This document shows, piece by piece, positions 7,874-24,197 of a stretch of 24,197 bases of DNA (within the stretch, counting starts at the first letter, position 1; each line of letters starts with the position of its first letter). The notes beneath the pieces are model-generated. The model saw nothing but the letters and a program-made list of their open reading frames with translations. It searched no databases and was not told where the DNA came from. The translations under genes and the position numbers were made by a program. The stretch is from a virus (Duplodnaviria; Heunggongvirae; Uroviricota; Caudoviricetes). The stretch covers positions 1 to 24,197 of IMG/VR virus record IMGVR_UViG_2619619133_000006; one strand, written 5' to 3'.

Positions 7874-7919
7874 CGGTACCAGTTTGTACCCTTGCTTCCG
7901 GCTGGTACCGTTCTTTTTA
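7874..7919 (+). terminator. Terminator-like hairpin (9-bp stem, large loop) followed by TTCTTTTT
   Basis: cggtaccag (7874-7882) pairs with ctggtaccg (7902-7910), then a T-rich run. The 19-nt loop makes this uncertain. Confidence 0.3.
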
Positions 7920-8007
7920 CAAAACAGAGAAGAGCATCACCGGACGACGGGCTCATAAACCAATCCATCCGGGCGGCTGCCACCGCAGGTGTTCTTCTCT
8001 GTTTTGT
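7919..8007. repeat. Long inverted repeat (15-bp perfect arms, 55-nt spacer) just upstream of the yfdP-like gene
   Basis: acaaaacagagaaga (7919-7933) is the exact reverse complement of tcttctctgttttgt (7993-8007). Confidence 0.6.
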
Positions 8008-8055
8008 GGAGAAACTAATCGGCCTTGCAGGGTCGATATGATGAGGAGCAGCAAA

Positions 8056-8418
8056 ATGGCTAGCGAACGCAGTACTGATGTGCAGGCATTTATCGGGGAG
8101 CTGGACGGCGGCGTATTTGAAACCAAAATCGGCGCAGTTCTCAGTGAAGTCGCTTCCGGTGTGATGAACACGAAAACCAAAGGTAAGGTCTCACTCAACC
8201 TGGAAATCGAACCATTTGATGAGAACCGTGTGAAAATCAAACACAAACTCTCATATGTTCGCCCGACTAACCGCGGGAAAATTTCCGAAGAAGACACCAC
8301 CGAAACGCCGATGTATGTCAATCGCGGTGGTCGCCTGACTATTCTGCAGGAAGACCAGGGACAGTTACTGACTCTTGCCGGTGAACCTGACGGAAAACTC
8401 CGCGCAGCAGGTCGTTAA
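8056..8418 (+). CDS. yfdP: YfdP-like prophage protein
   Basis: 120-aa product from the ATG at 8056 with AGGAG RBS; the track ORF 7807-8418 extends upstream through non-protein-like sequence. Length and position before the yfdQ-like gene match CPS-53 as recalled. Confidence 0.45.
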   Translation: MASERSTDVQAFIGELDGGVFETKIGAVLSEVASGVMNTKTKGKVSLNLEIEPFDENRVKIKHKLSYVRPTNRGKISEEDTTETPMYVNRGGRLTILQEDQGQLLTLAGEPDGKLRAAGR

Positions 8419-8483
8419 TATCGTTCTTAATTAACTGATTATTTATCTCATCACTGAATATCTTTATATAGTGAGGACTTATT

Positions 8484-9308
8484 ATGTCTCAGAACTTAGA
8501 CGCAACCGCAATTAATCAAATCCATGCCCTTATTTCTGCTCAGGGTGTTAATGAAATTATCAGTAAGATTGGTGCCGATGCTGTGGCATTGCCTGAGAAT
8601 TTCCGCATTCATGATCTGGAAAAATTTAATTTAAATCGCTTCCGTTTCCGTGGTGCGCTTTCCACTGCCAGCATCGATGACTTTACCCGTTATTCTAAAG
8701 ATCTTGCAGATGAAGGCACCCGCTGCTTTATCGATGCTGATAATATGCGTGCCGTCAGTGTGCTTAACCTGGGTACTATTGATGAACCAGGTCACGCAGA
8801 TAACACCGCCACACTCAAACTGAAAAAGACAGCACCGTTCTCTGCTCTGTTGACTGTTAACGGCGAGCGTAACTCCCAGAAGTCACTGGCAGAATGGATT
8901 GAAGACTGGGCCGACTATCTTGTGGGCTTTGATGCTAATGGTGACGCTATTCAGGCAACAAAAGCGGCTGCGGCTGTCCGTAAAATCACGATTGAAGCAA
9001 ACCATACCGCTGATTTTGAAGATAATGACTTCAGCGGCAAACGCTCCCTGATGGAGTCTGTCGAAGCGAAGACCAAAGACATTATGCCAGTGGCATTTGA
9101 ATTTAAATGCATTCCGTTTGAAGGTCTGAAAGAACGTCCGTTTAAATTACGCCTCAGCATTATCACTGGCGATCGTCCGGTACTGGTTCTGCGCATTATT
9201 CAGCTGGAGGCGGTGCAGGAAGAAATGGCTAACGAATTTCGTGATCTGCTTGTTGAGAAATTCAAGGACAGCAAAGTAGAAACCTTTATTGGTACTTTCA
9301 CCGCCTGA
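8484..9308 (+). CDS. yfdQ: YfdQ-like DUF2303 protein
   Basis: 274-aa ORF; same size and neighbourhood as CPS-53 yfdQ, from memory. Confidence 0.55.
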
Positions 9309-9320
9309 TTTCATTACTGC

Positions 9321-9342
9321 AAATGCCCCTGCGGGGGCATTT
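9321..9342 (+). other. Perfect 9-bp stem-loop between the yfdQ-like and yfdR-like genes
   Basis: aaatgcccc-tgcg-ggggcattt; no clear U-tract, so possibly an attenuator or mRNA-stability element rather than a terminator. Confidence 0.35.
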
Positions 9343-9435
9343 ATGGAAACGTAATTTACTCAATAATCGCCGGATGGTGAGGGATTCTTTTTACCAGAAT
9401 TCAGCGCGGTGCAGCGCATATACGTGGAGAACAAA

Positions 9436-9972
9436 ATGTCATTTATTAAAACTTTTTCCGGGAAGCATTTTTATTATGACAGGATAAATAAAGACGACAT
9501 CGATATTAACGATATCGCGGTTTCCCTTTCAAATATCTGTCGCTTTGCCGGTCATCTTTCGCACTTCTACAGCGTCGCCCAACATGCGGTTCTTTGCAGC
9601 CAGCTGGTGCCGCAGGAATTTGCTTTTGAAGCGTTAATGCATGATGCAACAGAAGCGTATTGCCAGGACATTCCCGCACCACTGAAACGCCTTCTTCCTG
9701 ACTATAAACAAATGGAAGAAAAAATAGACGCCGTAATCCGTGAGAAATACGGGTTACCCCCGGTTATGAGTACGCCCGTGAAATATGCCGATCTCATCAT
9801 GCTGGCAACCGAACGCCGCGATCTCGGGCTTGATGATGGCTCTTTCTGGCCTGTACTGGAAGGTATCCCGGCAACAGAGATGTTCAACGTGATTCCACTG
9901 GCACCGGGCCATGCCTACGGGATGTTTATGGAACGCTTTAACGAGTTATCGGAGTTACGCAAATGCGCATGA
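9436..9972 (+). CDS. yfdR: YfdR-like HD-domain phosphohydrolase (5'-deoxynucleotidase family)
   Basis: 178-aa product from the internal ATG with GGAGAA RBS; His/Asp-containing motifs (CRFAGHLSHFYSVAQH, LMHDATEAYCQDIP) are consistent with an HD-domain fold. Confidence 0.55.
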   Translation: MSFIKTFSGKHFYYDRINKDDIDINDIAVSLSNICRFAGHLSHFYSVAQHAVLCSQLVPQEFAFEALMHDATEAYCQDIPAPLKRLLPDYKQMEEKIDAVIREKYGLPPVMSTPVKYADLIMLATERRDLGLDDGSFWPVLEGIPATEMFNVIPLAPGHAYGMFMERFNELSELRKCA

Positions 9973-10325
9973 ATGTTTTCGAAATGGAAGGGTTTCTTCG
10001 TGGGAGATGTGTACCGCGAGATCTGAAAGTAAATGAAACAGATGCTGAATACCTGGTGCGTAAATTCGATGCGCTTGAAGCTAAATGTGCAGCACAGGAA
10101 AACAAAGTAATACCAGTGTCAACTGAACTGCCACCAGCAAATGAAAGTGTTTTGTTATTCGATGCTAACGGAGAAGGCTGGCTAATTGGCTGGCGTTCTC
10201 TCTGGTACACCTGGGGACAAAAAGAAACCGGAGAATGGCAGTGGACATTTCAGGTCGGGGACCTTGAAAACGTCAATATCACTCACTGGGCAGTAATGCC
10301 AAAAGCACCGGAGGCTGGAGCATAA
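9963..10325 (+). CDS. yfdS: YfdS-like protein
   Basis: 120-aa ORF overlapping the upstream stop; size and order as in yfdQRST. Confidence 0.45.
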   Translation: MRMNVFEMEGFLRGRCVPRDLKVNETDAEYLVRKFDALEAKCAAQENKVIPVSTELPPANESVLLFDANGEGWLIGWRSLWYTWGQKETGEWQWTFQVGDLENVNITHWAVMPKAPEAGA

Positions 10326-10630
10326 TGACCACTTTTACCGACAAAGAACTGATTAAAGAAATTAAAGAGCGTATCAGCAGCCTTGACGTGCGAGACGATA
10401 TTGAGCGCCGTGCTTATGAAATCGCACTCCTATCTCTGGAAGTAGAACCAGATGAACGCGAAGCTTATGAATTATTCATGGAAAAGCGTTTCGGTGACTT
10501 AGTAGATCGTCGGAGAGCAAAAAACGGCGATAACGAATACATGGCATGGGATATGACTCTCGGTTGGATCGTCTGGCAGCAACGAGCTGGTATCCATTTT
10601 TCAACAATGTCACAGCAAGAGGTGAAATAA
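10325..10630 (+). CDS. yfdT: YfdT-like protein
   Basis: 101-aa ORF; start overlaps the upstream stop (TAATG). Confidence 0.45.
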   Translation: MTTFTDKELIKEIKERISSLDVRDDIERRAYEIALLSLEVEPDEREAYELFMEKRFGDLVDRRRAKNGDNEYMAWDMTLGWIVWQQRAGIHFSTMSQQEVK

Positions 10631-10980
10631 TGGAGCCATACAGCCTCACACTCGATGAGGCCTGTCATTTTCTCAAGATATCCAGACCGACTGCCATTAA
10701 CTGGATACGCACAGGGCGTCTTCAGGCAACACGCAAAGATCCCACTAAGAATAAATCTCCTTACCTCACAACACGACAAGCCTGCATTGCGGCGCTTCAG
10801 TCTCCGCTGCATACTGTCCAGGTGAGCGCGGGTGATGGCATAACAGAGGAAAGAAAATGTCACTCTTCCGCAGAGGTGAAATATGGTACGCCAGTTTCAC
10901 ATTGCCGAACGGTAAAAGATTTAAACAGTCTCTTGGAACAAAGGACAAAAGGCAGGCGACAGAACTCCATGACAAGCTAA
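10630..10980 (+). CDS. Excisionase-like (Xis/AlpA-type HTH) protein; C-terminal extension overlaps int
   Basis: Starts at the ATG overlapping the upstream stop; N-terminus [33 protein letters not shown] is Xis-like and sits immediately upstream of int. The last ~40 codons overlap int and look non-protein-like. Confidence 0.4.
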
Positions 10981-12020
10981 AGGCTGAAGCATGGCGGGGC
11001 AGCAAACTTGGTGAAATACCTGATATAACGTTCGAGGAAGCGTGTGTCAGGTGGCTTGAAGAGAAAGCACATAAAAAATCACTGGACGATGACAAAAGCC
11101 GGATCGGATTCTGGCTTCAACATTTCGCAGGAATGCAACTAAGAGACATTACTGAATCAAAAATTTATTCAGCAATGCAGAAAATGACGAACCGGCGTCA
11201 TGAGGAAAACTGGAAACTCAGGGCAGAAGCATGCAGAAAAAAAGGGAAACCTGTTCCAGAATACACGCCAAAACCAGCGTCCGTTGCAACGAAGGCTACG
11301 CATCTTTCATTTATAAAGGCCCTACTAAGAGCCGCAGAGCGTGAATGGAAAATGCTGGATAAGGCACCAATTATTAAAGTGCCTCAACCAAAGAATAAAC
11401 GGATCCGCTGGCTGGAGCCCCATGAAGCACAAAGGCTGATTGATGAATGTCCGGAGCCATTAAAGTCTGTTGTTGAATTTGCACTGGCAACAGGCTTAAG
11501 ACGCTCGAACATCATCAACCTTGAATGGCAACAAATAGATATGCAGCGCCGGGTGGCATGGATAAACCCAGAAGAGAGTAAATCAAACCGCGCAATCGGC
11601 GTTGCGCTGAATGATACTGCATGTCGCGTTTTGAAAAAACAAATCGGGAATCATCACCGTTGGGTATTTGTGTACAAGGAAAGCTGTACCAAACCAGACG
11701 GAACGAAAGCGCCAACAGTAAGGAAGATGCGGTATGACGCAAACACAGCCTGGAAAGCGGCGCTGAGACGGGCTGGTATTGATGATTTCAGATTTCACGA
11801 CTTGAGACACACCTGGGCAAGTTGGCTGGTTCAAGCCGGAGTCCCGTTGTCAGTGTTACAGGAAATGGGAGGCTGGGAGTCTATCGAAATGGTTCGTCGA
11901 TATGCTCACCTTGCACCTAATCACCTTACCGAACACGCACGGCAAATAGACTCGATCCTGAACCCATCGGTCCCAAATTTGTCCCAGTCAAAAAATAAGG
12001 AAGGTACTAATGATGTGTAA
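10857..12020 (+). CDS. int: Tyrosine integrase, P22 Int / DLP12 IntD type
   Basis: 387-aa ORF; N-terminus [34 protein letters not shown] recalled as the P22/DLP12 integrase family; catalytic motifs [11 protein letters not shown] and MVRRYAHL; 10 bp from the tRNA-Thr core. Confidence 0.85.
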
Positions 12021-12029: not shown

Positions 12030-12048
12030 TTAAATGGTGCCGATAATA
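12030..12048 (-). other. att core: 19-bp copy of the 3' end of tRNA-Thr (thrW), not a complete tRNA gene
   Basis: tggtgccgataataggagt is the reverse complement of ACTCCTATTATCGGCACCA, the thrW 3' end as I recall it. Flanking sequence diverges from the tRNA, so only the core is present. Confidence 0.45.
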
Positions 12049-12196
12049 GGAGTAAAACACTCGATTAATCTCGTGTTAATGCCATCACCTACGACCATTA
12101 CTAATTGATTGAATCTTATAGAAAAAATCATCATTTTCTATGCATTACAATCAATTTTCACATTACAAACGCTCCGACACTTTAGCCGGGGAGTTT

Positions 12197-13474
12197 ATGA
12201 GATACAAGCCCAATCAATACATAATCTGTGATTCTTACGGTAACTACTATTTGAGGATCACGTTGCCTGTGTATATGCAGCCCTTTTTTGAAGGAAAAAG
12301 GACGTTTGTCAGGAGTCTGCATACAAGTAACCTTCGTGTTGCACGTAGAAAGCGTGATCAGATTGCAGATGAATACCATTGTTTACGGGAGAGTGTCGCC
12401 CCTGTAAACAGCACAATAGAGAACACGCTGGAACTGTTACGCAGTAAGGCTAAATACGCCAAAACAGCTACCAGAATGCAAGATACAGCGTCTTCGTGTC
12501 CGTCATTGCTTAAAATTCTTGAAATCTACCTGACAATTAACAGCACGAAGAAGAAGCCAGCCACTTTAGCTAAGGCAAGAAAAGCGGTAGAGATGTTTCT
12601 CTCCTACCGTAAAAAGCCTGATATTGCATTGCAAGATGTGAGCCGCACCACTGTTACAGGCTGGATTGAACACATGCAAAAAACCCTTTCACAACAATCA
12701 ATTGCAAATTATATCAGCCCAATGGCCCAGCTATGGGAGTTAGCTTCATCACGTTACCACGATGCGCCAGAAAGGGCGCTCTCCCCCTGGCGAGGGCATA
12801 GGCTTGATGTGGCACAAAGTAGAGAGAGCTACGAGGCATTTTCTAACAAAGAGCTATTGCAGGTGTTGCAAGTATTTTCCGGTAATTCAGCAGAAAACAA
12901 AGAAATGATGGCTTTGTGTCTTATCGGTGCTTATACAGGTATGCGGATCAATGAGATAGCAAGTCTCACAATAGACGATGTGAAAGAGATCGAAGGTGTG
13001 CTGTGTTTTGAAATCACACAGGGAAAAACGAAAGCTGCGGCACGTGTTGTGCCTGTACATAGCCTTATCACTCCGTTGGTGTTGTCGCTGCGTGAAAAGC
13101 CTCATAATGGCTTTTTGTTCTATCACGCCAGCATTACAGAGCGTGCTGATGGTAAACGTTCCACGTGGCACACGCAGAGATTTACAAGAGCTAAACGAAA
13201 GGCTTTAGGGGAAAAGGGAACAGAAAGGAAGGTGTTTCATTCTCTGAGACACGGAGTAGCACAGCTTCTTGATCGAAATCAAATTCCAGAAGACAGGATC
13301 GCCCTTCTCCTGGGCCATACACGCGGTAATACAGAGACATTCCGCACATATAGCAAGAATGCAGCTTCTCCAGTAGAGCTTAAAAACTATATTGAGCTTC
13401 TACGCTACCCTGAAATAGAGAAAGGCTTATCAATCAATAAAAAATCAAATTTAAGGCGTAAAACAACGCCATAG
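12197..13474 (+). CDS. Tyrosine integrase (second, unrelated family)
   Basis: Likely start at the internal ATG with GGGGAG RBS (track ORF begins at 12140). Catalytic motifs HSLRHGVAQLL and ETFRTYSKN; N-terminus NGNYYLRITLP typical of integrase arm domains. Confidence 0.75.
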   Translation: MRYKPNQYIICDSYGNYYLRITLPVYMQPFFEGKRTFVRSLHTSNLRVARRKRDQIADEYHCLRESVAPVNSTIENTLELLRSKAKYAKTATRMQDTASSCPSLLKILEIYLTINSTKKKPATLAKARKAVEMFLSYRKKPDIALQDVSRTTVTGWIEHMQKTLSQQSIANYISPMAQLWELASSRYHDAPERALSPWRGHRLDVAQSRESYEAFSNKELLQVLQVFSGNSAENKEMMALCLIGAYTGMRINEIASLTIDDVKEIEGVLCFEITQGKTKAAARVVPVHSLITPLVLSLREKPHNGFLFYHASITERADGKRSTWHTQRFTRAKRKALGEKGTERKVFHSLRHGVAQLLDRNQIPEDRIALLLGHTRGNTETFRTYSKNAASPVELKNYIELLRYPEIEKGLSINKKSNLRRKTTP

Positions 13475-13555: not shown

Positions 13556-14269
13556 CTATTCCTGTTTAAAGGCAGGAGTAATAGTGTCTTCACCTTCACT
13601 ACTAGATTTTTCAGTGTTAACACGTTTTTTCATATTAGCCCCGATGTTCTTAGATGGCTGTGTTTTGATAGCTACAGTGTTTACAGTGCCATAAGACACT
13701 AATCTTATTTGCTCAAAGCTAAGATCAAATACCAGAGATTCGCTTGCCTCTTCTGTGTATTCGATGCCTGTTAAAACAACGTTCTCAAAAGTTTTATTTT
13801 CTGTAACAAGAAGAAAAGGCTGTCTACTGTCCATAATCTGATTCAGGTAGTCGATAGCTAATGATCTTCTGTTCCCGTTCACCCCTGCACTCTTTAACAA
13901 GCCAGGATCGCTTTTAATCGGTGTTTCAGTGATCCTTCCCTTAAGAGAAAACTTATTGTTTTTAATTTGAACGTGATCAGACACAGTAGCACCATTCTCT
14001 ACGGGGTAGCTTGTGACATCTGCCGAACGTCTCACGTTCACATCATCTACACTGTCAAAGGCCAGTGCCATATAATTTTCATAAACGTCATTGCCAGAAG
14101 ATGCCAAGCCACTTGTAACAATAGCAAATCCATTCTCTCCTTTTGTTTTATTAGCTTTGCTATTTTCGTTTTTTGTAGAGTTTATATCTTGTTCTGCTTT
14201 GTAAACAGCCTGAACGTGTTGTTCTGGAGTATTTGCTGCACGTATGGTTAAAATTCCCGCCGTTGCCAT
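13556..14269 (-). CDS. Hypothetical protein (virion-protein-like composition)
   Basis: 237-aa ORF with AAGGAAA RBS; rich in N/S/T/G; last gene of the minus-strand cluster, facing the integrase. Confidence 0.4.
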   Translation of the reverse strand: MATAGILTIRAANTPEQHVQAVYKAEQDINSTKNENSKANKTKGENGFAIVTSGLASSGNDVYENYMALAFDSVDDVNVRRSADVTSYPVENGATVSDHVQIKNNKFSLKGRITETPIKSDPGLLKSAGVNGNRRSLAIDYLNQIMDSRQPFLLVTENKTFENVVLTGIEYTEEASESLVFDLSFEQIRLVSYGTVNTVAIKTQPSKNIGANMKKRVNTEKSSSEGEDTITPAFKQE

Positions 14270-14290: not shown

Positions 14291-16132
14291 TTATGGCGGA
14301 AATTCCCCGCCGTTAGATTGTCCTGATAAGCTGGTTAATGTTAATGATTTCAAGAAGCTATCCCGACTTGCTCTCGCTGTAAAATCCACATAATCGCTTA
14401 ATCTTGATGTGTCACTATTAATAGTAAGCGGAACCTCTGTTACCACTTCAAATGTAGGATTCAGATTAAACACAGGAGATAAATTATAAGCCGGAGTTGT
14501 CATTGCAAGATTATTTAAAGCACCCTGTTTGAGATTGGTTATCGGTGCTTCATTGACTGACATTTTTACATCTGACACAGAAGATTTATCATCGAAAAGC
14601 AATCCCTTAATCGTGTTAAAGAGAGAATGACTATTATCAGGTGTAGTTGTTGCAGTGCCAGCGCCTTTATATTGATCAGGAACGAGATTAGAAAGATTCT
14701 GTTTCATTCCGTCATTGCTTAATGGCGGTGCATCACCTAAATTTTTCTGAATAGCCTCTGTCTTATCATCATTACGATTAAACCAGTTTACAATCTTCAT
14801 AATAGCTTCAAAGAGACTTCCTACAGCTTCTCCCAGCTTCGTAAAATACGGAGTGAGATTAGAAAGGTTTTTCATAAACTCTTCCGTTACTTTTGGATCG
14901 AGAGATTTCATAAAGCCATCAACAAAGGCGATCCCTTGTGAGTCAGAAAGCCCACTAAGTGCATTATTCAGTTCACGGAATTTAATAACGCTTTCCTGTT
15001 GTGCCTGTGTTACCCAGCGCCCTGATTCTCGTTGTTCTCGTGCTGATTGTTCCACTTCTTTAGCGGAGCGTGTCCAGTATTTAGAGGTGAGCATCAAATC
15101 ATCAGCCAGATCTTCCAGACGACTACCGATCTGCGCATCTGAATAGCCCTTTTTCACCATTCCATTGACAGCTTTACTAACCAGACCAGCCGGATTATCA
15201 GCAAAGTCTTTTAAATCTTTCTTAGTTAAGAAACCTTCGTTAAGTAAAGTATTAATACCTGAATCGCCGCCCTTCCATTCGCCTCGGCCTGTTTTCTTAT
15301 CAACTACATATTCAGCTTCATCATAAGATTTGGTTGCACGTTCACGCACATCTTTCATCTGATCCAGATACTTGCGACGACCTTGATCCCCCATCATTGA
15401 ATCAACGCCGTTTTTATACGCCCATTGTTCAATATTGTTCATCTGGTTAACATCTACACCGCCCAGCTTCGCACGGCTATACAATTCACCCAGCGTTTCA
15501 GCGTTAGCGAAGCTGTTAGCCATAAATTCAGAGGTTTTACTAACAGCCATCACGCCAGCAGCAGCCGTAGCGCCTCCAAATAACAGAGCGCCCATAGTGG
15601 CGGAATTCCCTGATCCTCCCTTAACGGGGGCTAATTGTGCTTTTCTGTTGCCATTAATTTTACGTTGTTGCTGTTGTAAGCGTTTCATCTGGCTATTCAT
15701 ACGTGCAAGCGAGATAGCGCCTTGTTCGTATTGTTTGGCTATCTCACGCGCCTGTGCAATAGCTTTGTATTGTTCCGCTACAGAGAGGCGGTGCATTGCA
15801 CTGATAGAGCTTGAAACATCAAGGAGCTTTAACTCTGCTTTCTCTTTACGTGCTGCTATTTGTGCCTGTTGCCTTGCCTGTGCTCTTGCTGCGGCAGCTT
15901 GTGCTTTTTGATTCTGTTTTTCGTTTTTCGCTTTTTGCTGGGTAATCTTGTCTACTTCACTTTGTGCTTTCTTATAGCCTTTAGTGACACTATCAAACCT
16001 TAATTTAGCTGGCTTGATATTTTCTGTGAATTCTTTTAGGCTTGTAATAGAGTCTTTCGCTTTTTTCAAGCTGTCTTTATCTACACTAAATGTTACTGTG
16101 TTCTTAATTTTAGAAGTGTTAATTTCTAACAT
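14291..16132 (-). CDS. Large hypothetical protein with N-terminal coiled-coil/low-complexity region (structural or ejection-protein-like)
   Basis: 613-aa ORF with GGGGA RBS; N-terminal KAKNEKQNQKAQAAAARAQARQQAQIAARKEKAELK; no catalytic motif recognised. Confidence 0.45.
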   Translation of the reverse strand: MLEINTSKIKNTVTFSVDKDSLKKAKDSITSLKEFTENIKPAKLRFDSVTKGYKKAQSEVDKITQQKAKNEKQNQKAQAAAARAQARQQAQIAARKEKAELKLLDVSSSISAMHRLSVAEQYKAIAQAREIAKQYEQGAISLARMNSQMKRLQQQQRKINGNRKAQLAPVKGGSGNSATMGALLFGGATAAAGVMAVSKTSEFMANSFANAETLGELYSRAKLGGVDVNQMNNIEQWAYKNGVDSMMGDQGRRKYLDQMKDVRERATKSYDEAEYVVDKKTGRGEWKGGDSGINTLLNEGFLTKKDLKDFADNPAGLVSKAVNGMVKKGYSDAQIGSRLEDLADDLMLTSKYWTRSAKEVEQSAREQRESGRWVTQAQQESVIKFRELNNALSGLSDSQGIAFVDGFMKSLDPKVTEEFMKNLSNLTPYFTKLGEAVGSLFEAIMKIVNWFNRNDDKTEAIQKNLGDAPPLSNDGMKQNLSNLVPDQYKGAGTATTTPDNSHSLFNTIKGLLFDDKSSVSDVKMSVNEAPITNLKQGALNNLAMTTPAYNLSPVFNLNPTFEVVTEVPLTINSDTSRLSDYVDFTARASRDSFLKSLTLTSLSGQSNGGEFPP

Positions 16133-16147: not shown

Positions 16148-16351
16148 TTAATCATTTTTACAACCTTCTTTACTTAAGAAATGGTGTAGAGCCTGATCAA
16201 TACTCTCGTTTAATCTGAACATACGGGCTTTTACTCCTTCATATGGAACATCTAAGAGAGAACATAGATATTTCAGATTTAACAAGCCTCTAGAATCATT
16301 AGCATCTAAATGTACGTGGACACCATTTTTTGATTTCAGAATCACTTCCAT
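16148..16351 (-). CDS. Small hypothetical protein
   Basis: 67-aa ORF with GAGAGGTGA RBS immediately after the A19 terminator. Confidence 0.35.
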   Translation of the reverse strand: MEVILKSKNGVHVHLDANDSRGLLNLKYLCSLLDVPYEGVKARMFRLNESIDQALHHFLSKEGCKND

Positions 16352-16373: not shown

Positions 16374-16420
16374 AAAAAAAAAAAAAAAAAAAGGCGAAGC
16401 GTGAATACACGCCACGCCTC
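16374..16420 (-). terminator. Strong intrinsic terminator after the capsid-like gene, with a 19-nt homopolymeric T tract
   Basis: On the minus strand: hairpin ggcgtggcgtg-tatt-cacgcttcgcc (about 10 bp, one mismatch) followed by T19 (A19 on the plus strand, 16374-16392). Confidence 0.6.
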
Positions 16421-16436: not shown

Positions 16437-17465
16437 TTATTTAACAGTGATTTGAACGGAGAAGCCTACACCGTGGTTTACAACCATCTGGCTATTCTCT
16501 GTAACAACGTTAACAGCATCACCACGAGAAGATTCATAGCTATAGCTGTAAACCTCAGTAGGAGCGGCATTAATCAGTTCAAAGGTGCTGGAAGCAGCCC
16601 CGTAGATGTTCTGATATACGTTAGAGCCTTTAGCGAATTTAGGCACAGCTACAGCGTCTGCGGTCATATGTGCAAGGTGTAGCGGATCTACCAGTTTAAC
16701 AACATCAATGTTAGTTCCTGGAATAGTGAACGCTGTCACCCCTGGCAGCAGGTCACGACGCTGATACACAACGTTCCCTTCTTCCAGTGGGCTTACATAC
16801 TGGAATGCGTTTGCCATACCCGCAGAGAATCGAATTGCAGAGAAGGCTTCCGGCTTACAGAAAACAACAATACGCTCTACAGCAGCCGCCTGGCTTTGTG
16901 CTTTCTCGATAATGTCAGTAGCAATCTGATCAAATTCTTTAAAAATCTTCGTGGTGTCAGTGCTGGAAGCGTTCACAGTGGCTTTCATAGCTGATACGTT
17001 AAACAGCTTGCCCCACTCGATAAGAACATCATCAGTTTTAGGCGTGTAAGTTTTGCCAGAGAACAAAGAAGCCGCCAACACGCTCTCTTTAGTGCGCTGA
17101 TACGCTACGTGGTGTTTAGCAACATAGTCAGCATAGATATCAGTGAGTGTTTCCTGGAAATCAGTGCCAGGTTTACGTTTGCCTTGAACATCAGAAGGAC
17201 GGATCACATCTTCACGAAGAAAATACGGGATTTCAATCAGCCATTCTTTACCTTGTTCTCGCTTAGTAACGTTGTGTTCAGAAGAGAAACGAGAGGTTTC
17301 TTTGTTAAAGAGAGATTCGTTGCTTTCGACAAGCTGGGAAACAGCTACTTTATGAGAACTAACGCCCACCGGATCAGTGAAGTCGAGGGTAGAGAGCAGA
17401 TAGTTTCTAGTGCTATGAGCCTGGAAAAGCGGAGCTAAATCAACGTAATCATTACCTAGAATCAT
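16437..17465 (-). CDS. Putative major capsid protein (local similarity to T7 gp10-type capsid protein)
   Basis: 342-aa ORF. VERIVVFCKPEAFSAIRFSAGMANAFQYVSPLEEGNVVYQRRDLLPGVTAFTIPGT parallels T7 gp10A ADRVFYCDPDSYSAILAALMPNAANYAALIDPEKGSIRNVMGFEVVEVPHLT as recalled. Size, strong terminator after it and operon position fit a highly expressed structural gene. Confidence 0.45.
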   Translation of the reverse strand: MILGNDYVDLAPLFQAHSTRNYLLSTLDFTDPVGVSSHKVAVSQLVESNESLFNKETSRFSSEHNVTKREQGKEWLIEIPYFLREDVIRPSDVQGKRKPGTDFQETLTDIYADYVAKHHVAYQRTKESVLAASLFSGKTYTPKTDDVLIEWGKLFNVSAMKATVNASSTDTTKIFKEFDQIATDIIEKAQSQAAAVERIVVFCKPEAFSAIRFSAGMANAFQYVSPLEEGNVVYQRRDLLPGVTAFTIPGTNIDVVKLVDPLHLAHMTADAVAVPKFAKGSNVYQNIYGAASSTFELINAAPTEVYSYSYESSRGDAVNVVTENSQMVVNHGVGFSVQITVK

Positions 17466-17483: not shown

Positions 17484-17846
17484 TTAAGAAGTGAAAACAG
17501 AGTGGAACCCTTCAAGCTGGAAGCCTTTTTTAATTAATGCTGTTTTTGCTGCTTCACTTACAGCATTCAGCGCATCAGCTTTGATGCAGACAAGCCCAGC
17601 ATTGCTACGTAGCACATCTACAGGCTTGTTGTCTCCAGCCGTTAAAAACTCACTCATAACAACATAGATATCATCTCCTGATTCATATTTAGCGCCAGTG
17701 CTTGTGATCAAGTCGCCGCACTCAACATCAGCAGGAAGAGAAGCAAAAACCTTGCTTTCTACAGAGGCAAACGGATCAGTACAATAACTTACAATATCTG
17801 TGAAAGTCTTTCGAACTGGAAATAGAGTGTCTAAATCAATAATCAT
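17484..17846 (-). CDS. Hypothetical protein upstream of the capsid-like gene
   Basis: 120-aa ORF overlapping the upstream stop (ATGA). Confidence 0.4.
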   Translation of the reverse strand: MIIDLDTLFPVRKTFTDIVSYCTDPFASVESKVFASLPADVECGDLITSTGAKYESGDDIYVVMSEFLTAGDNKPVDVLRSNAGLVCIKADALNAVSEAAKTALIKKGFQLEGFHSVFTS

Positions 17847-18055
17847 TTAGTAATCTCCTTAGCTTTTAATTTGATTAATTCATTAAGGGAAGGTGTAGAC
17901 GGAGAAGAAGGAGAAAAATATTTTTCAACACATCTTTCTACTTCCTCGACAGAACACCCAGCGTATTTAGCTACCATTTCGGTAATTTGTGGATTAATTT
18001 TCAGCATTTCATCTTTATACTTGATGATTTGCTCTTTATCATTTAAGAACAACAT
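17843..18055 (-). CDS. Small hypothetical protein
   Basis: 70-aa ORF, first gene after the 18.06-18.39 kb intergenic region. Confidence 0.35.
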   Translation of the reverse strand: MLFLNDKEQIIKYKDEMLKINPQITEMVAKYAGCSVEEVERCVEKYFSPSSPSTPSLNELIKLKAKEITK

Positions 18056-18329
18056 TTATATAAACCTTGTTACCTTGTTTAAAGTAAGAAATACAACTTT
18101 TAAGTTGCATAACGGGCAAAATAAAAGGCAGCATTTAAAGCCGCCTTTGTAATTACCCTATGTTATGCACACTCCAAGATGTATGCATAACAAAGGAAAA
18201 AAGAGGTAATAATGACACAGTATTTACTTAAGGAGGAGAAGCGGGGAGCGGAGATTTTACTCCCCTTTAACGACAAGAAGAATTTTTAATATCGAACCAA
18301 TAAAGGAAAAATAATCACCCCATATAATT

Positions 18330-18358
18330 ATATTAACATACAATAGATGGAATGTCAA
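18330..18358 (-). promoter_or_regulatory. Candidate sigma70 promoter for the capsid-containing operon
   Basis: Minus strand TTGACA (18358-18353), 17-bp spacer, TAATAT (18335-18330). Downstream palindromes CAACTT-TT-AAGTTG (18095-18108) and TTATGCA-N14-TGCATAA (18163-18190) could be operators. Confidence 0.35.
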
Positions 18359-18387: not shown

Positions 18388-18726
18388 TTATTCTTCTGTG
18401 ATAGTAGCGCCTAAGCGTTGAGCTAGTTCAACAAGTCCGTCTCCTACATAGCGAACGTCCGATTCAAGACCTTCTATCCAGTTTGATAGCTCCCATAGCT
18501 GAGCCGCTGTCAGATATGCGTTCTCACGCTTACAGAGCATCTCTACACGCTTAGAGAGGTGCTCAAAGGCATTCACAGCTAAATCCCAGTGTTTAAACGC
18601 CTCATTTAGTGCCGCTGGCGTGTTTTCTTTGTATGCTTCAAGTTCAGCGCGGTTTAAAGGCAGGAGGTAATCATCCTCATAATAATTAATTAGTGAATAA
18701 ATTGTGTCATACGTGTTTTTGTTCAT
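18388..18726 (-). CDS. Hypothetical protein
   Basis: Likely start at the ATG at 18726 (GGAGA RBS, 2 nt after the upstream stop) rather than the track start at 18753; about 112 aa. Confidence 0.4.
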   Translation of the reverse strand: MNKNTYDTIYSLINYYEDDYLLPLNRAELEAYKENTPAALNEAFKHWDLAVNAFEHLSKRVEMLCKRENAYLTAAQLWELSNWIEGLESDVRYVGDGLVELAQRLGATITEE

Positions 18727-18727
18727 A

Positions 18728-19138
18728 TTAAAAGTCTCCATAGTGATCAACATTATCTAGAATATGGAATTCTGGGACTAAATTATTTAGGCCATTTGTG
18801 GCGAGATAACCAACGTAGTGGTTATAGTCTTCAAATCCTAAAATCTGGTATTTGCGGAGTTCGTCAGAACTAACAATATACTCTTTTCTTTTTCTAGGTT
18901 TCCAGAATACACCAGGTGTTGAAGATAAGATTTCTTGTAATGCGTTAAATTCATCTCCACAAGGCACAGAGGGAGAATGTTCTATGATCTCTGTTTTCCA
19001 TTCGCCAGGGGCGCTATTTTGCTTGGTGAGCGTAACTAGCTCTTTAAAGTCTTTACGTCTTAGAATAGATTTAGGTTTACTTAGAAGAGAAGCTGAATCA
19101 CCGATTTTCTTAACAACGTTGTTTTTTCTTTTTGCCAT
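18728..19138 (-). CDS. Hypothetical basic protein
   Basis: 136-aa ORF; lysine/arginine-rich N-terminus MAKRKNNVVKK. Confidence 0.4.
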   Translation of the reverse strand: MAKRKNNVVKKIGDSASLLSKPKSILRRKDFKELVTLTKQNSAPGEWKTEIIEHSPSVPCGDEFNALQEILSSTPGVFWKPRKRKEYIVSSDELRKYQILGFEDYNHYVGYLATNGLNNLVPEFHILDNVDHYGDF

Positions 19139-19270
19139 TATTTACTTTTCCTTTTCTTTTAAAGGAAAACACCCCGAAGTATGTTTCTAACGTGAGAAAG
19201 AACAATAACCAATACATAGCTACTATCATAATAATGTTTTCCTTTTATATTTTAATTACATAGAGAGATT

Positions 19271-19546
19271 TTAGAGAGTGGAATAGATGAATTCTACTTT
19301 ATCTAGTCTTTTGAGATTGAATGTAGAGAAAGATAATTCTTTAATCTCTATAACACCGAAATTTGATAGCTGTCTAAGCCAGAATTTTAAACCATCTTCA
19401 GAGCAAGCTGCTCGATGTAACACATCGCTATATTTTAGCGGTGTTGGCTTTCCTTTATAGAGGTAAGCAAGTGTTTCGTAGATGCGTTTTCCTGTGTCAT
19501 TACACTGAATTCTGTCTACTTGATTTTTTACTAAATATTGAATCAT
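19271..19546 (-). CDS. Small hypothetical protein
   Basis: 91-aa ORF in the operon. Confidence 0.35.
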   Translation of the reverse strand: MIQYLVKNQVDRIQCNDTGKRIYETLAYLYKGKPTPLKYSDVLHRAACSEDGLKFWLRQLSNFGVIEIKELSFSTFNLKRLDKVEFIYSTL

Positions 19547-19557: not shown

Positions 19558-20247
19558 TTAAAATGGAATATCAAAGTCTTCATATACTTTGGGATGTTTC
19601 TTAGCAAAATATGCCTCAATACCATTTGGTAGCTTTAACCTGTGCTTATAGGCTAACGATGTTGCAAATTCTATAAAGGATGCCCCTCCTGTTCTGGTAT
19701 TCTTCTGCGTGATAATAAGAGAGGCAAAATTCTCTAACACATCCTCCTCATTATCATTAGCTACCTTTTCATTTGATGAAACAGGTGTTTCTTCCATCTC
19801 CCAGGGTAAAGGCGTATCCCAATCATCAAGAACATCAAAAGAAGGCTGTTTATGGCCTTTAGGTTGTTCCTGTGCTTCTTCTGCCTCAGAAAGATCAGAG
19901 AGTGATGATTCTCCTGGGGGAGTAATATGTGCATCTGTGAGAGGGAGAGCATTGTAAATCAAAGATGAAATATACGGATCAGGATGTGGGGATGTTTCTA
20001 ATAATCCCATCTCTTTAAGATCGTTTATCTTACGTTTAATTGTTGACGCTGAAGACTTAAAAATCTTAGCTAATGTTTCGTGACTTTCATAACAATTAAG
20101 GTTGTTTTCCTGATAACTAAGGAATCGAAAATAAAGCACAATATGTAATAGTTCTAAATCTTTTCCTTGAGGGAATTTATCAGAATAAATCTTTGATACA
20201 TTATCAAACGTGTCATAGTGTTTTGTAAAAGTTAGTTGATTAATCAT
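19558..20247 (-). CDS. Putative DNA-binding / replication-initiator-like protein (N-terminal winged HTH, acidic linker)
   Basis: 229-aa ORF; LELLHIVLYFRFLSYQENNLNCYESHETLAKIFKSSASTIKRKINDLKEMGLLE resembles the HTH of phage/plasmid initiators; lies near the iteron region. Confidence 0.35.
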   Translation of the reverse strand: MINQLTFTKHYDTFDNVSKIYSDKFPQGKDLELLHIVLYFRFLSYQENNLNCYESHETLAKIFKSSASTIKRKINDLKEMGLLETSPHPDPYISSLIYNALPLTDAHITPPGESSLSDLSEAEEAQEQPKGHKQPSFDVLDDWDTPLPWEMEETPVSSNEKVANDNEEDVLENFASLIITQKNTRTGGASFIEFATSLAYKHRLKLPNGIEAYFAKKHPKVYEDFDIPF

Positions 20248-20298
20248 TAAAAATCTCCTTATAAATCACGCTTAATGCGCTACTAAAGTGAATGAGGA

Positions 20299-20466
20299 TC
20301 ACTTACCCTTTTTTTGTTTGATGTTCTCTGCTGCTTCAGTAATGATTTCTAACATCAAATCACTGACCATAATTTGCCTTTTCTTGGCTTCAGCAAATAA
20401 AACCTTGAAGATTTCAGGGTCAACGTGTAGGTAAGTGCGCGGAATTGGTTTCTTAGTTTCGCTCAT
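20299..20466 (-). CDS. Small protein (55 aa), possible DNA-binding regulator
   Basis: Below the ORF-track size cutoff. ATG at 20466-20464 with AGGAGA RBS; MSETKKPIPRTYLHVDPEIFKVLFAEAKKRQIMVSDLMLEIITEAAENIKQKKGK; a beta-strand-then-helix pattern is compatible with ribbon-helix-helix, which is uncertain. Confidence 0.3.
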   Translation of the reverse strand: MSETKKPIPRTYLHVDPEIFKVLFAEAKKRQIMVSDLMLEIITEAAENIKQKKGK

Positions 20467-20485
20467 AGTTTTCTCCTTCTATTCT

Positions 20486-20674
20486 TTACTCTGTTTCAGA
20501 TTCTTTTTCATTTTTTCTTAATTCATCAATAATCTTGAGTGCTTCATTGAAGCAAGCTGCTCGCTCTGGATAACCTCGACTCCTTGCCATATTACGATTC
20601 ATTACTATTTGATGGCGTGTAAGCTCACCTTTTTTAAATGCCTGGATGACGTGCTCAGATGTAAACCATTTCAT
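20486..20674 (-). CDS. Small hypothetical protein (first gene of the minus-strand operon)
   Basis: 62-aa ORF directly downstream of the candidate promoter at about 20.8 kb. Confidence 0.3.
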   Translation of the reverse strand: MKWFTSEHVIQAFKKGELTRHQIVMNRNMARSRGYPERAACFNEALKIIDELRKNEKESETE

Positions 20675-20784
20675 AAAAAACTCCTTATTCAGTTAAAAGA
20701 AAAAACACCTTGCAAGCCTGACGGCTTCAAAGTGCATTGATTTTGATTATTTAGAGAAGAATGTTTTCTGTCCCTCTAATACCT

Positions 20785-20813
20785 ATTATTACATATAAAG
20801 AAACATTTGTCAA
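20785..20813 (-). promoter_or_regulatory. Candidate sigma70 promoter facing the 62-aa gene
   Basis: Minus strand TTGACA (20813-20808), 17-bp spacer, AATAAT (20790-20785). Confidence 0.3.
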
Positions 20814-20905: not shown

Positions 20906-20935
20906 TCTAAAACGCTCTAAAACGCTCTAAAACGC
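20906..20935. repeat. Three exact tandem copies of 10-bp TCTAAAACGC
   Basis: Copies at 20906-20915, 20916-20925, 20926-20935. Confidence 0.7.
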
Positions 20936-21349
20936 GTTATAACGAGATTTTGATAAAAGCAATACATTCCCTTATGTAATGGCTGTTTAGCTCGCCAGAG
21001 GCTTATTTAAGGGGCTTATTTTGTATTTGTTAGGTATATGAAAAGGTAATGGTAGATATAAGATAGAGAGTCACTTTATAAAACGCTATGTAAAGCCCTG
21101 TAGTGAGCTTATATGTGTAGGCAATGCGTTTCCATTCCCTACCCTGCTTAATGCTGTTAGAGAAGCATTTAGACCCCTTATTTTTAATTAATTAAAGTAT
21201 CCTCTATACATTCCTGTTATGAAACACCTCTGAATCCTTCATAAAACACATTATGACGCAAAGAACACTTTTCTAAGGTGATTCCCTTCCTGAATGCTGT
21301 TTCTTGCGTCAGAGAGCTACAGAGAGCTTATAAAGCTATTATTAATAAT

Positions 21350-21852: not shown

Positions 21853-21924
21853 AGATATAAAGAATATTATTATTATGATCTAATTAATAATCTAATATAG
21901 TTTTATTAATAGTCTTATTGTAGT

Positions 21925-22026
21925 TCACAGTGACCTACCCCCTAGCTCACTATGACCTACCCCCTAGCTCACTATGACCTACCCCCTAGCTCATAGTGAA
22001 CTACCCCCTAGGTCACAGTGACCTAT
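21925..22026. repeat. Iteron array A: 4.5 tandem copies of 22-bp TCACTATGACCTACCCCCTAGC
   Basis: Copies at 21925, 21947, 21969, 21991 (variant) and partial at 22013; directly abutting, no spacers. Confidence 0.8.
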
Positions 22027-22082
22027 ATAGTATAAAGAATATTATTTATATTATTTAATTATAGTATTTAATTATAGTATTG

Positions 22083-22184
22083 GTGGAACTCATTTCCTAG
22101 GTAGGTAGGAACTCATTTCCTAAGTAGGTAGGAAACCACTTCCTAGGTTACTTCCTAAATAGATCGGAAATCATTTCCTAGGTG
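22083..22184. repeat. Iteron array B: 4-5 copies of about 23-bp GGAACTCATTTCCTAGGTAG-like unit
   Basis: Copies at about 22085, 22108, 22131, 22166; each contains internal GGAA...TTCC dyad symmetry. Confidence 0.75.
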
Positions 22185-22198
22185 TTATTTATACTTAT

Positions 22199-22262
22199 CG
22201 GGTATCAGTTTTGATAGGGGTATCAGACTTGATAGGGGTAACAGAATTTTGTTAGGGTAAAA
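22199..22262. repeat. Iteron array C: 3-4 copies of about 18-bp TTGATAGGGGTATCAGA
   Basis: Copies at 22211-22227 and 22229-22245, plus partial copies on both sides. Confidence 0.7.
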
Positions 22263-22304
22263 ATCTCTTTAAAAGTTAAGATTAACAGAATTCTGTGGGG
22301 GTGG

Positions 22305-22341
22305 TTCACTATGACCTACCCCTAGTTCACTGTGAGCTACC
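22305..22341. repeat. Two further array-A-type iterons about 280 bp from the main array
   Basis: ttcactatgacctacccctag (22305-22325) and ttcactgtgagctacc (22326-22341). Confidence 0.65.
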
Positions 22342-22470
22342 GTTACATTCAATCATCTTCCGATGTGTAATATCGTTACATTCAATAATTAGTCTATGTA
22401 ACATATCGTTACTACCAACTTTCTTACAGAGAGCATTTCAGATAGCTGAATGTAACCTCTCGTTACATCC
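22340..22470. repeat. Repeat family CGTTACAT(T)C (4 direct copies plus 1 inverted)
   Basis: Copies at about 22340, 22372, 22406 and 22460; inverted copy tgaatgtaacc at 22447. Confidence 0.6.
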
Positions 22471-23059: not shown

Positions 23060-23599
23060 ATGAGCAATATCGGTTATAAGCGTGTGAGCACTGTAGATCA
23101 GAACACTGATCGCCAGCTTGCAGGAGTAACGCTTGATAAAGTCTTTGAAGATAAGCTGTCAGGTAAAGACACTAACCGTCCAGGCTTACAAGCGTGTTTA
23201 TCCTATCTGAGAGAAGGCGACACCTTACACGTGCACTCTCTCGATCGTTTAGGGCGTAACACCTTAGACATTCTTGCCTTAGTGGAACAACTTAATAATC
23301 GTGGTGTAATTGTTCGCTTTCACAAAGAAGGGATCATTGCAGACATTACAAGCGCGATGGGAAAGATGATGCTTACGATGTTGTCGGCAGTTGCAACGTG
23401 TGAACGTGAACTGATGTTAGAGCGTAAACGAGAAGCGCAAGCCGTCAATCCTACAAAGCGTGGTAAAGGTAAAGCAGTGGATAGGGAAGGTATAAAGAAA
23501 GCCCTTTCTGATGGCCTGTCAGTGCGTAAAACCGCCGAGAGCTTTAATGTTGCTCCTTCAACGGTACAGCGAATTAAGAAGGAAGAAGAGGAGGCGTAA
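23060..23599 (+). CDS. Small serine recombinase (resolvase/invertase family)
   Basis: 179-aa ORF; catalytic N-terminus MSNIGYKRVSTVDQNTDRQ with Ser in the RVST motif; aligns in pattern with Hin/Gin/Tn3 resolvase; C-terminal HTH LSVRKTAESFNVAPSTVQRI. Confidence 0.85.
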   Translation: MSNIGYKRVSTVDQNTDRQLAGVTLDKVFEDKLSGKDTNRPGLQACLSYLREGDTLHVHSLDRLGRNTLDILALVEQLNNRGVIVRFHKEGIIADITSAMGKMMLTMLSAVATCERELMLERKREAQAVNPTKRGKGKAVDREGIKKALSDGLSVRKTAESFNVAPSTVQRIKKEEEEA

Positions 23600-23710
23600 T
23601 GCCTCCTTGATATTTGGGGATTCTGGATTTTCCAGATCGGGGGGCGCTGAAAATCGCGTTAAGCACCTCTCGCAATCTAGCCATAAGGGAAGGAATATAG
23701 GTATTTAGAT

Positions 23711-23750
23711 GTATTTATAGCTATTTATGGCTATTTATGGCTATTTATTT
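23711..23750. repeat. Four to five tandem 10-bp repeats (G/C)TATTTAT(G/A)G
   Basis: gtatttatag, ctatttatgg, ctatttatgg, ctatttattt in tandem; 10-bp phasing. Confidence 0.65.
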
Positions 23751-24038
23751 TTTATTTACCTTTATTTAAAAATAACCTTATAAATCAATAAGATACAGAA
23801 CTATCTGTTTATATTTTAACCAATTAAATCAAGTTTAATACCCTTAAATAACCTGAAAATAGCCTTAAATACCCCAATAATTAATTTTAAGGTTTTCCGT
23901 GTTCTCTTCTGCATTATGAAAATGCAAAATAAGGCACAAAACAAGCGCACAGACGCATTAAACACACATCACCTATACATCCCTATACCAAGCAATGAAA
24001 ACAGCGTTAGAATGCGTCCTGTTGGGTTCTGGAGATTT

Positions 24039-24197
24039 TCAGAAATCCTCTCTAAGCCATTTCAACTCACTAAGGAGTTTTCTTTCTTCGTTCTCTCGCT
24101 GTTTACGCTCTAGCCAGGCTTTTCCTTCTGGCGTAGACAGGAACTTACGAGCGTGAATCTTGCGGTTATTACGTTTTATAGCTGCAATGTTTTTCAT
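24039..24197 (-). CDS. Small basic hypothetical protein (52 aa), start codon at the window edge
   Basis: Minus-strand ATG at 24197-24195; MKNIAAIKRNNRKIHARKFLSTPEGKAWLERKQRENEERKLLSELKWLREDF; below the ORF-track cutoff. The start may lie further upstream outside the window. Confidence 0.25.
   Translation of the reverse strand: MKNIAAIKRNNRKIHARKFLSTPEGKAWLERKQRENEERKLLSELKWLREDF

Follow-up and report, generated by a model that had tools for sequence, protein, structure and literature searches.

What is a gene for a phage major capsid protein doing in a small integrative element of Escherichia coli in which neither a portal nor a terminase gene lies nearby? The question is raised by positions 16437..17465 of IMG/VR record IMGVR_UViG_2619619133_000006, of which positions 1 to 24,197 were analyzed (this whole stretch of 24,197 nucleotides is called the window below). 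The gene is part of an integrative element of approximately 12.4 kb in E. coli DNA that begins at window position 12035 and extends past the window end, with approximately 0.6 kb lying outside. An earlier note on this DNA had described a lone capsid-like gene with a T7 gp10-like signature and had suggested a satellite strategy in which a helper phage has its capsid redirected or remodelled. The comparisons presented here indicate that the element is probably a satellite of large virulent Stephanstirmvirinae myophages, and one of a probably undescribed family.

The open reading frame (ORF) at 16437..17465 on the minus strand is a single intact long ORF whose coordinates are exact; it starts with ATG and encodes 342 amino acids (aa). 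The Pfam family Phage_cap_E (PF03864) matched residues 15-341 to profile positions 10-329 of 329 with an E-value of 6e-14 and a score of 52.2 bits (cut-off 22.9), and all homologues of the protein carry PF03864. PHROG 29 'major head protein' matched the ORF at 5e-15, and a sequence search of the PDB returned capsid 9zbi (1.7e-10) as well as phi92 gp124 over its full length (2.5e-6). The alignment with phi92 gp124 is end-to-end at 22% identity (E 1e-9), and the identity to any sequenced phage capsid is only 22-25%. An AlphaFold model of the protein, made with 20 homologues as input, had a predicted local distance difference test (pLDDT) value of 61 and a predicted template modelling score (pTM) of 0.61, with an unreliable N-arm; the HK97 spine helix (residues 103-136) and the expected strands were present. 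Foldseek found 147 PDB chains at E≤1e-3 with this model, the top one being PhiTE (3e-13). The best 50 of these 147 chains were almost all HK97-fold shells, that is, phage capsids and a few encapsulin-type cages, and the closest fold matches came from the myophages PhiTE, Bas63 (JohannRWettstein), ICP1 (8g1r) and Sf14. The product of 16437..17465 is an HK97-fold major capsid protein of the Phage_cap_E family, in the lineage of lambda E and phi92 gp124. The earlier assignment of the gene to a capsid protein was thus borne out by the Pfam, PHROG and PDB sequence matches and by the model, and the fold check proposed at that time (AlphaFold followed by Foldseek) returned HK97-fold shells and not a non-capsid fold.

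The resemblance to T7 gp10 proved to be limited to one local match of 35 residues, with no family-level or full-length similarity. BLASTP against T7 gp10A gave a sole alignment, residues 200-232 to T7 206-239, with 37% identity and an E-value of 0.002 that applies to this single pair; the matching patch, VVFCKPEAFSAI versus VFYCDPDSYSAI, lies at an equivalent position in the two proteins. T7 gp10 was missing from the PDB sequence matches of the capsid ORF at E≤10 and came at rank 22 in the fold search of the model, with a template modelling (TM) score of 0.38. The capsids of phi92, PhiTE, Bas63 and ICP1 are far closer.

The capsid gene had also been described as standing alone. It does not, because the genes beside it encode homologues of decoration, tape-measure and tail-tube initiator proteins. 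The structural module, which lies on the minus strand, runs in the order 70-aa ORF, 120-aa ORF, capsid protein, terminator-like hairpin and 67-aa, 613-aa and 237-aa ORFs, and this order parallels phi92 gp122-123-124 (scaffold, decoration, capsid) and gp134-135 (tape measure, initiator). The 237-aa protein (13556..14269, minus strand) is a Dit-like tail-tube initiator and a homologue of phi92 gp135, with matches to Pfam Dit_like (3e-29) and to PDB 21vq_N Phi92_gp135 (2e-78); it is 58-61% identical to Stephanstirmvirinae phages (Justusliebigvirus, Phapecoctavirus). The 613-aa protein (14291..16132, minus strand) is a tape-measure-like homologue of phi92 gp134, matched by phrog_16051 (6e-50) and by PDB 21vq_V Phi92_gp134 (5e-36). 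Its first 50 aa are 64% identical to the phi92 protein and the remainder is 10-40% identical. Both the strongly conserved tape-measure N-terminus and the initiator, with its 60% identity, resemble docking surfaces that stay compatible with parts of a helper.

The smaller proteins of the module were more difficult to place. The 120-aa protein (17484..17846, minus strand) occupies the place of phi92 gp123 and is head decoration-like; it belongs to no sequence family, and its model has a pLDDT of 67. The six best PDB Foldseek matches of this model were accessory chains of approximately 123-146 residues from the capsids of Sf14, Bas63 and PhiTE (E 4e-3 to 6e-2), which we read as decoration proteins, and matches in BFVD, a viral structure library, carry the name 'head decoration protein'. 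The C-terminal ...VFTS is common to the 120-aa protein and phi92 gp123; the comparison of the 120-aa family with gp123 by hhalign was not significant. Over its whole length, the 70-aa protein (17843..18055, minus strand) could be aligned with the last 66 residues of gp122, the scaffold protein of phi92; the identity is 34% and the E-value, without correction, 1.8e-4. This match is weak, as its score was reached by 1 of 200 shuffles and the composition is rich in lysine and glutamate. No Pfam match was found for the 70-aa ORF with a Pfam set that seemingly did not contain PF26210 and PF26075, since it missed a PF26210-bearing protein of the related locus L039. The 70-aa protein is possibly a mini-scaffold. 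In the more distant relatives L039/L040 (8065-8544, 9273-9638), an adaptor is 39% identical to phi92 gp126 (PhiTE/phi92 gp126 type), and a 121-aa protein matches the first 74 residues of gp122 at 47%; in L039 this protein lies at the position of the 70-aa ORF, and a precomputed table lists PF26210 for it.

Between the capsid and tape-measure genes lies the ORF of a 67-aa protein (16148..16351, minus strand), a putative small helix-turn-helix (HTH) DNA binder. An ORF of approximately 60-67 aa with an HTH-like pattern occupies the same position in every element examined, a location that is odd for a DNA-binding protein. The HTH matches of the 67-aa protein in Pfam were all below threshold, and hhalign of its family against phi92 gp133 was not significant. 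The predicted HTH protein could be a candidate site-recognition or regulatory factor. The terminator-like hairpin at 16396..16420 (minus strand) follows the capsid gene directly, and a similar hairpin is found after phi92 gp124.

Searches with Pfam, PHROGs and NCBIfam detected no portal, terminase, protease, sheath, tube or baseplate (wedge) gene in any ORF of the element; NCBIfam also gave no names for the structural genes. Without such genes, the element cannot build a particle alone. The earlier observation that no portal, scaffold or terminase lies nearby was found to apply to the whole window in the same three collections.

Two unexpected matches to phages at the DNA level were found outside the structural module. 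A sequence at 23603..23685 (plus strand) mimics the right boundary of the terminal repeat of phi92 and is a candidate terminase recognition or cleavage site. Window positions 23636-23675 form an exact 40-mer, with 40 of 40 bases identical to phi92 318-357, and around it a stretch of 79 bp is similar in the two sequences (window 23603-23681 versus phi92 285-363). The Smith-Waterman score of the mimic against phi92 was 45, compared to a maximum of 16 for shuffles. The annotated left direct terminal repeat of the phi92 record spans 1-343, so that the 40-mer straddles its right boundary, with the junction GCGTTA|AGCAC. The equivalent sequence is conserved at the same place in dozens of Stephanstirmvirinae genomes from phages of E. 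coli, Klebsiella and Citrobacter, and the left ends of the phage genomes start with AGCC or AGCAC, as expected if the terminase cuts at that boundary. Similarity to the rest of the terminal repeat was not significant; phi92 135-184 was marginal compared to shuffles and gave an E-value of 8e-6 against the Klebsiella phage. A 91-bp stretch containing the mimic shows at least 95% identity across 421 E. coli genomes. The capsid gene varies more, most of its copies having 90-95% identity and 94 copies 60-80%.

Variants of the site were compared with phages of different lineages. The site in the window scored 48 against phi92, 25 against Phapecoctavirus WPEC4 and 48 against a Klebsiella phage; because the scores for phi92 and the Klebsiella phage are equal, it is set apart from Phapecoctavirus only. 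The site of the divergent L015 clade matched Phapecoctavirus with 81% identity over 83 bp (E 4e-13) and scored 52, compared to 16 for phi92. In the Klebsiella elements, the site was nearest to that of a Klebsiella Stephanstirmvirinae phage (38 versus 21 and 13). Judged by these scores, the site variants co-vary strongly with phage lineage. A lineage-matched site of 79 bp would point to the packaging signal of the Stephanstirmvirinae, which is still undefined.

DNA exchange with Justusliebigvirus phages was also detected. A segment of 229 bp at 20250..20478 (minus strand), just upstream of the gene for a Rep-like protein, contains a 55-aa ORF (20299-20466). Its nucleotide sequence matches two Justusliebigvirus genomes, that of phage muut with 99.6% identity, at gene muut_153 of the early region, and that of phage inny with 98.7%. 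The 55-aa protein is 100% identical in these phages, and among 50,697 phage records it was present in muut and inny only. Transfer from the element to the phage is likely, because the 55-aa gene is standard in the element and rare in phages. Whichever the direction of transfer, the near-identity of the 229-bp segment indicates that the element and a Justusliebigvirus were recently in one cell. Capture of a satellite gene by the phage (muut_153) could be a counter-measure.

The capsid gene was detected in approximately 7% of complete E. coli genomes (393 of 5426), among them that of the laboratory strain NC101, and was full length in 378. In these genomes it was always chromosomal, with up to 3 copies per genome, and fell into at least 2 sequence clades. 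The ratio of nonsynonymous to synonymous substitution rates (dN/dS), calculated among E. coli copies at dS of about 0.15-0.45, was 0.05-0.11 for the capsid (the value taken at dS about 0.25), 0-0.10 for the decoration protein, 0.05-0.10 for the tube initiator and 0.13-0.21 for the tape measure, and no internal stops were present. Homologous elements with a common core occur in Klebsiella, Serratia, Sodalis, Citrobacter and Enterobacter. The order of this core is an ORF of approximately 70 aa, one of approximately 120 aa, the capsid gene, an ORF of approximately 62 aa and the tape measure, with or without the initiator, followed by the integrase. An exhaustive HMMER search of 1.84 billion representatives returned only 82 related capsid clusters. 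The intermediate clusters that could be placed (34% and 28% capsid identity) were again located in small elements that carry an integrase together with tape-measure and decoration proteins; the capsid, decoration and tape-measure core is thus kept in more distant hosts, down to 28% capsid identity. Because of the purifying selection and the intact core that recurs across genera, this is a selected gene set and not the product of random decay. Among the L041/L042 relatives, L041 has the tape-measure gene upstream, and not downstream, of the capsid genes.

On the basis of the terminal-repeat mimic, the DNA exchange with a candidate helper and the synteny under purifying selection, the satellite strategy that had been suggested for this locus is still its best reading. 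The helper for the copy in the window would be a Justusliebigvirus (phi92-like), and that of sister copies would be Phapecoctavirus or Klebsiella relatives. Upon infection by the helper, the element would excise and replicate from an iteron origin. Its shell proteins (the capsid protein, the decoration protein and perhaps the 70-aa protein) would then form a dedicated, presumably small capsid on the helper portal, and the helper terminase would recognize or cut the mimic site so that element DNA is packaged. The particle would be completed with the neck, sheath, tube and baseplate of the helper together with the tape measure and, in this lineage, the tube initiator of the element. The diversion of helper parts would probably lower the helper yield as well. 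We know of no satellite of a virulent phage in E. coli. A more extended proposal, which we regard as quite possible if not yet probable, is that these elements are the first satellite family of virulent coliphages; that they form hybrid virions, in which a satellite shell (capsid protein, decoration protein and a mini-protein derived from a scaffold) and tail-lumen parts (tape measure and tube initiator) are mounted on the portal, neck, sheath, tube and baseplate of the helper; that genus specificity is provided by an exchangeable cassette mimicking the cut site; and that the phages fight back or are manipulated, as the captured satellite regulatory gene would suggest.

Several observations weigh against the satellite interpretation. 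Induction, packaging and transfer are steps that we infer, and the terminase-site role of the conserved phage sequence was assigned from its position in annotated records. The left boundary of the helper terminal repeat had no match in the element, so that only the right boundary is mimicked. In the clade of L014 (E. coli MJ-T, tRNA-Gly), the site variant CAGATCGGGAGGCTTGATCTTTGTGTTCAACGA at about 4940-5060 of L014 had no match in the phage collection; this clade is also without the tube-initiator gene, and its helper may be an unsampled phage. Moreover, all combinations of site type and capsid clade occur (L017, L027 and L028-L030 compared to the window). A capsid gene 99% identical to that of the window was seen with a Phapecoctavirus-type site, and one 74% identical with a phi92-type site. 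Because all combinations occur, the site behaves as an exchangeable cassette, and the modules of the element are, as far as these comparisons indicate, shuffled by recombination. In IMG/VR there was no stand-alone contig of approximately 12 kb, all matches being inside larger host-derived contigs. Metagenome or SRA contigs of approximately 12 kb (L036, L041, L042) were considered as free forms and rejected, since they are integrated copies that end near the att (attachment site) repeats. The quality of the AlphaFold models of the capsid and the 120-aa protein is moderate. Finally, a foreign portal would have to accept a capsid protein of 22% identity with no portal, protease or full scaffold provided by the element, and we know of no satellite that assembles such a diverged capsid on a foreign portal without its own portal, protease or full scaffold.

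The main rival is an anti-phage island that spreads by other means, in which the diverged capsid protein, tape measure and initiator poison the heads and tails of phi92-like phages and the mimic titrates or misdirects their terminase. This explanation fits most of the data. The partial homologues and their chimeric conservation, such as the tape measure that resembles phi92 closely in its first 50 aa and little elsewhere, are as expected for parts that dock onto a helper; the candidate targets are virulent, and no packaged form was seen in IMG/VR. Defence that acts by disturbing tail assembly is known (PMC11364771). We nevertheless consider it rather unlikely as the whole explanation, as it leaves unexplained the iteron replicon, the decoration protein, the full-length capsid under strong purifying selection and the lineage-matched sequence resembling a cut site, and PADLOC matched no known defence family. 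Interference and satellite transfer can coexist, as they do in PLE and P4, and a defence function is compatible with the satellite model. A different helper was also considered. If the element were a satellite or defective virus of another, unsampled phage with a closely related capsid, its likeness to Stephanstirmvirinae would be ancestral or acquired; the low identity of the capsid protein to those of sequenced phages and the small, isolated capsid family of 82 clusters would then be accounted for. This is unlikely, because the closer relatives with readable context are all in the same kind of element and not in phages, and because the exact 40-bp site, the 229 bp at 99.6% and the 60%-identical initiator point specifically to Stephanstirmvirinae.

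That the capsid gene is a functionless leftover of a cryptic prophage appears most improbable. The element adjoins a lambdoid prophage at a tRNA site and most virion genes are missing, as such a remnant would require. However, the compact set and its order are kept, with intact ORFs and dN/dS of 0.05-0.2, in 378 E. coli genomes and in other genera, every lineage has side by side genes that phi92 has 5 kb apart, and the element is also found where the lambdoid prophage is absent; neither frequent frameshifts or pseudogenes nor dN/dS near 1 were observed among the copies. The phi92-like phages are virulent, and no temperate relatives of them are known to us. The version of the earlier note, in which a stand-alone capsid protein of T7 gp10 type acts on a helper capsid by redirection or remodelling, can draw on the 35-residue match to T7 gp10A at an equivalent position and on the HK97 fold of both proteins. 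It is very unlikely, because the PDB search and BLASTP refute its T7 part, because the similarity to T7 gp10 is neither family-level nor full-length, and because other virion genes accompany the capsid gene. Co-assembly with a helper capsid protein is also unlikely at 22% identity; redirection or remodelling of the helper capsid is therefore probably the wrong mechanism, and a shell of its own is more likely for the satellite than a reshaped helper shell.

The boundaries of the element were determined from its att repeats. The left att core at 12035..12053 (plus strand; TGGTGCCGATAATAGGAGT, 19 bp) is the 3' end of the tRNA-Thr gene thrW and forms the junction between prophage and element. In E. 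coli SF-468 (L001) the same 19-mer is present on both sides of the element, at 6007 and 18584, and in the sister copy of NCTC10973 (L002) srsR is split by the element, which is flanked by a perfect 52-bp direct repeat of srsR. Other clades are integrated at a tRNA-Gly gene, giving at least 3 chromosomal sites in all. As att repeats flank it and the same unit of approximately 12.4 kb occurs elsewhere without the prophage, this is a bona fide site-specific integrative element. A tRNA scan of the window detected no tRNA gene, and the att core is only a 19-bp fragment of thrW. The tyrosine integrase of the element (12140..13474, plus strand; Pfam DUF6538, Phage_int_SAM_5 and Phage_integrase) shares 93-96% identity with its counterparts in L001 and L002; the RefSeq copies begin at the Met that corresponds to about 12197. 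At the window edge lies a 52-aa ORF (24039..24197, minus strand), from where the element continues for approximately 0.6 kb to the right att copy. The presence of the integrase and att repeats, together with the missing portal, terminase and full head module, agrees with the small integrative element that had been proposed.

The remainder of the window, positions 1-12020, is the early region of a lambdoid prophage with an excisionase and an integrase at 10857-12020. Its contents include an SDH-type protease, DUF968/HNH, KilA-N, an O-like replication protein, CII, Cro, CI with an S24 peptidase domain, DUF2303 and an HD-domain protein, in addition to the excisionase and integrase. The lambdoid prophage and the satellite-like element are thus in tandem at one tRNA site, and both meet at the thrW att core. 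That the capsid gene might be part of this adjacent prophage was considered and rejected, since other strains (L001, L002) carry the element but not the lambdoid prophage.

Regulatory and replication genes of the element form a second minus-strand operon, in the order promoter-like site, 62-aa and 55-aa ORFs, Rep-like protein and three small ORFs. It is headed by the 62-aa ORF and the strongest promoter-like site (20486..20813, minus strand; TTGACA-17-AATAAT at 20813-20785). The Rep-like winged-helix protein (19558..20247, minus strand, 229 aa) has HTH_36 and DUF6945 domains and matches replication-initiator PHROGs, e.g. phrog_270 at 6e-9. The three conserved small ORFs (18388..19546, minus strand; 121, 136 and 91 aa) are annotated as intact genes in L001 and L002 and had no family matches in Pfam, PHROGs, NCBIfam or PADLOC. 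Directly upstream of the structural operon, a promoter-like site, leader and hairpin were found at 18124..18358 (minus strand), with TTGACA-17-TAATAT at 18358-18330 followed by a leader of approximately 180 nucleotides and a terminator-like hairpin (18148-18124), functions that are read from the sequence. With this arrangement, the operon may be controlled through antitermination or a small leader RNA.

An iteron field at 21920..22343 (no strand) consists of five tandem 22-bp repeats (21920-22029), two more at 22301-22343 and a second repeat family at 22094-22183; it has the features usual for an iteron origin, lies next to the Rep-like gene and is presumed to be the replication origin of the element. 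In RefSeq copies no gene is annotated between 20.7 and 23.0 kb. Further repeats are found near the iterons, including 20906-20944, as are three copies of a 32-bp repeat and three of a 10-bp unit. An AT-rich repeat of approximately 28 bp (TAAAAATCTCCTTATAAATCA...) is present in three copies, which adjoin the start of the Rep-like gene (20248-20275), the iterons (22258-22285) and the terminal-repeat mimic (23767-23794), respectively, and a TATTTATGGC triplet lies at about 23717-23750; these AT-rich repeats and the triplet may be binding sites of one regulator. A serine recombinase of the resolvase/invertase family (23060..23599, plus strand; Pfam Resolvase, 1e-33) is replaced in sister elements by a small tyrosine recombinase at the same position. 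The Rfam scan of the element gave nothing meaningful, PADLOC detected no defence system, and the T4-type late promoter TATAAATA had no informative occurrence.

If the satellite interpretation is correct, it raises the questions of how a foreign capsid is assembled on the helper portal and why a satellite should have its own tape measure. It would also be of practical concern. Phages phi92, Phapecoctavirus and Justusliebigvirus have a broad host range, are often isolated and are considered for therapy, and an island present in approximately 7% of complete E. coli genomes could affect the efficacy of therapy phages and move DNA between strains.

Literature searches found no satellite described for phi92, Phapecoctavirus, Justusliebigvirus or the Stephanstirmvirinae. 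An overview of satellite kinds from December 2025 lists only P4, PICI, cf-PICI, PLE and jumbo-phage islands and nothing like the present element (PMC12772148). No domains matching PICI or PLE markers (AlpA, Pri-Rep, TerS, Ppi, PLE genes) were found in the element. Compared to phi92, the structural genes have the same order as gp122-gp124 and gp134-gp135, with a decoration fold and with identities of 22% for the capsid, about 30% for the tape measure and 60% for the initiator; they differ in being condensed into 4.5 kb and in lacking roughly 40 other virion genes of phi92. Satellite P4, whose helper is P2, has 11.6 kb, an integrase next to att, a packaging site copied from the helper, the decoration protein Psu and the size-determining scaffold Sid. 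The element resembles it in its similar size, the integrase next to att, the candidate copy of a helper site, the decoration protein and a possible scaffold-derived protein. In contrast, P4 uses the capsid protein of its helper, and that helper is temperate; no homologues of Sid, Psu, Delta or the primase (alpha) were found in the element, whose replication protein is an iteron-type Rep-like HTH protein.

PLE of Vibrio cholerae encodes no capsid protein and forms small heads from the capsid protein of ICP1 itself with the external scaffold TcaP (title of 8g1r; PMC12772148). Like PLE, the element would be a chromosomal island parasitic on a large virulent myophage, and the ICP1 capsid 8g1r is among its closest fold matches, but it encodes a capsid protein and no PLE-like genes were detected. 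PICMIs are described as satellites of virulent phages with no structural genes; a virulent helper would be common to both and the structural genes are the difference. The Streptomyces satellites MiniFlayer and MulchRoom are reported to have their own encapsidation proteins and are without integration and replication genes. The element is like them in the former respect and differs in its unrelated hosts and in having integration and replication genes.

The element works most like a cf-PICI. The cf-PICIs encode the whole set for head formation and packaging (portal, protease, connectors and small terminase), take only tails from their helpers and depend on temperate helpers of approximately 40 kb. 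The element has no portal, prohead protease, connectors or small terminase detectable with Pfam, PHROGs or NCBIfam. In addition it has a tape measure and a tube initiator, and virulent myophages of approximately 148 kb are the candidate helpers. What it has in common with the cf-PICIs of Enterobacterales, which are integrative satellites of approximately 10-15 kb that form their own heads (PMC12772148), is integration and an HK97-fold capsid protein of its own. Because the defining portal, protease, connectors and small terminase were not detected, the element is placed outside the cf-PICIs and would be, conditional on experiments, a new family within a known kind of satellite. To our knowledge, the satellites described so far either reshape the helper capsid or carry a whole head module; the provision of a shell and inner tail proteins only would, if true, be a third satellite strategy.

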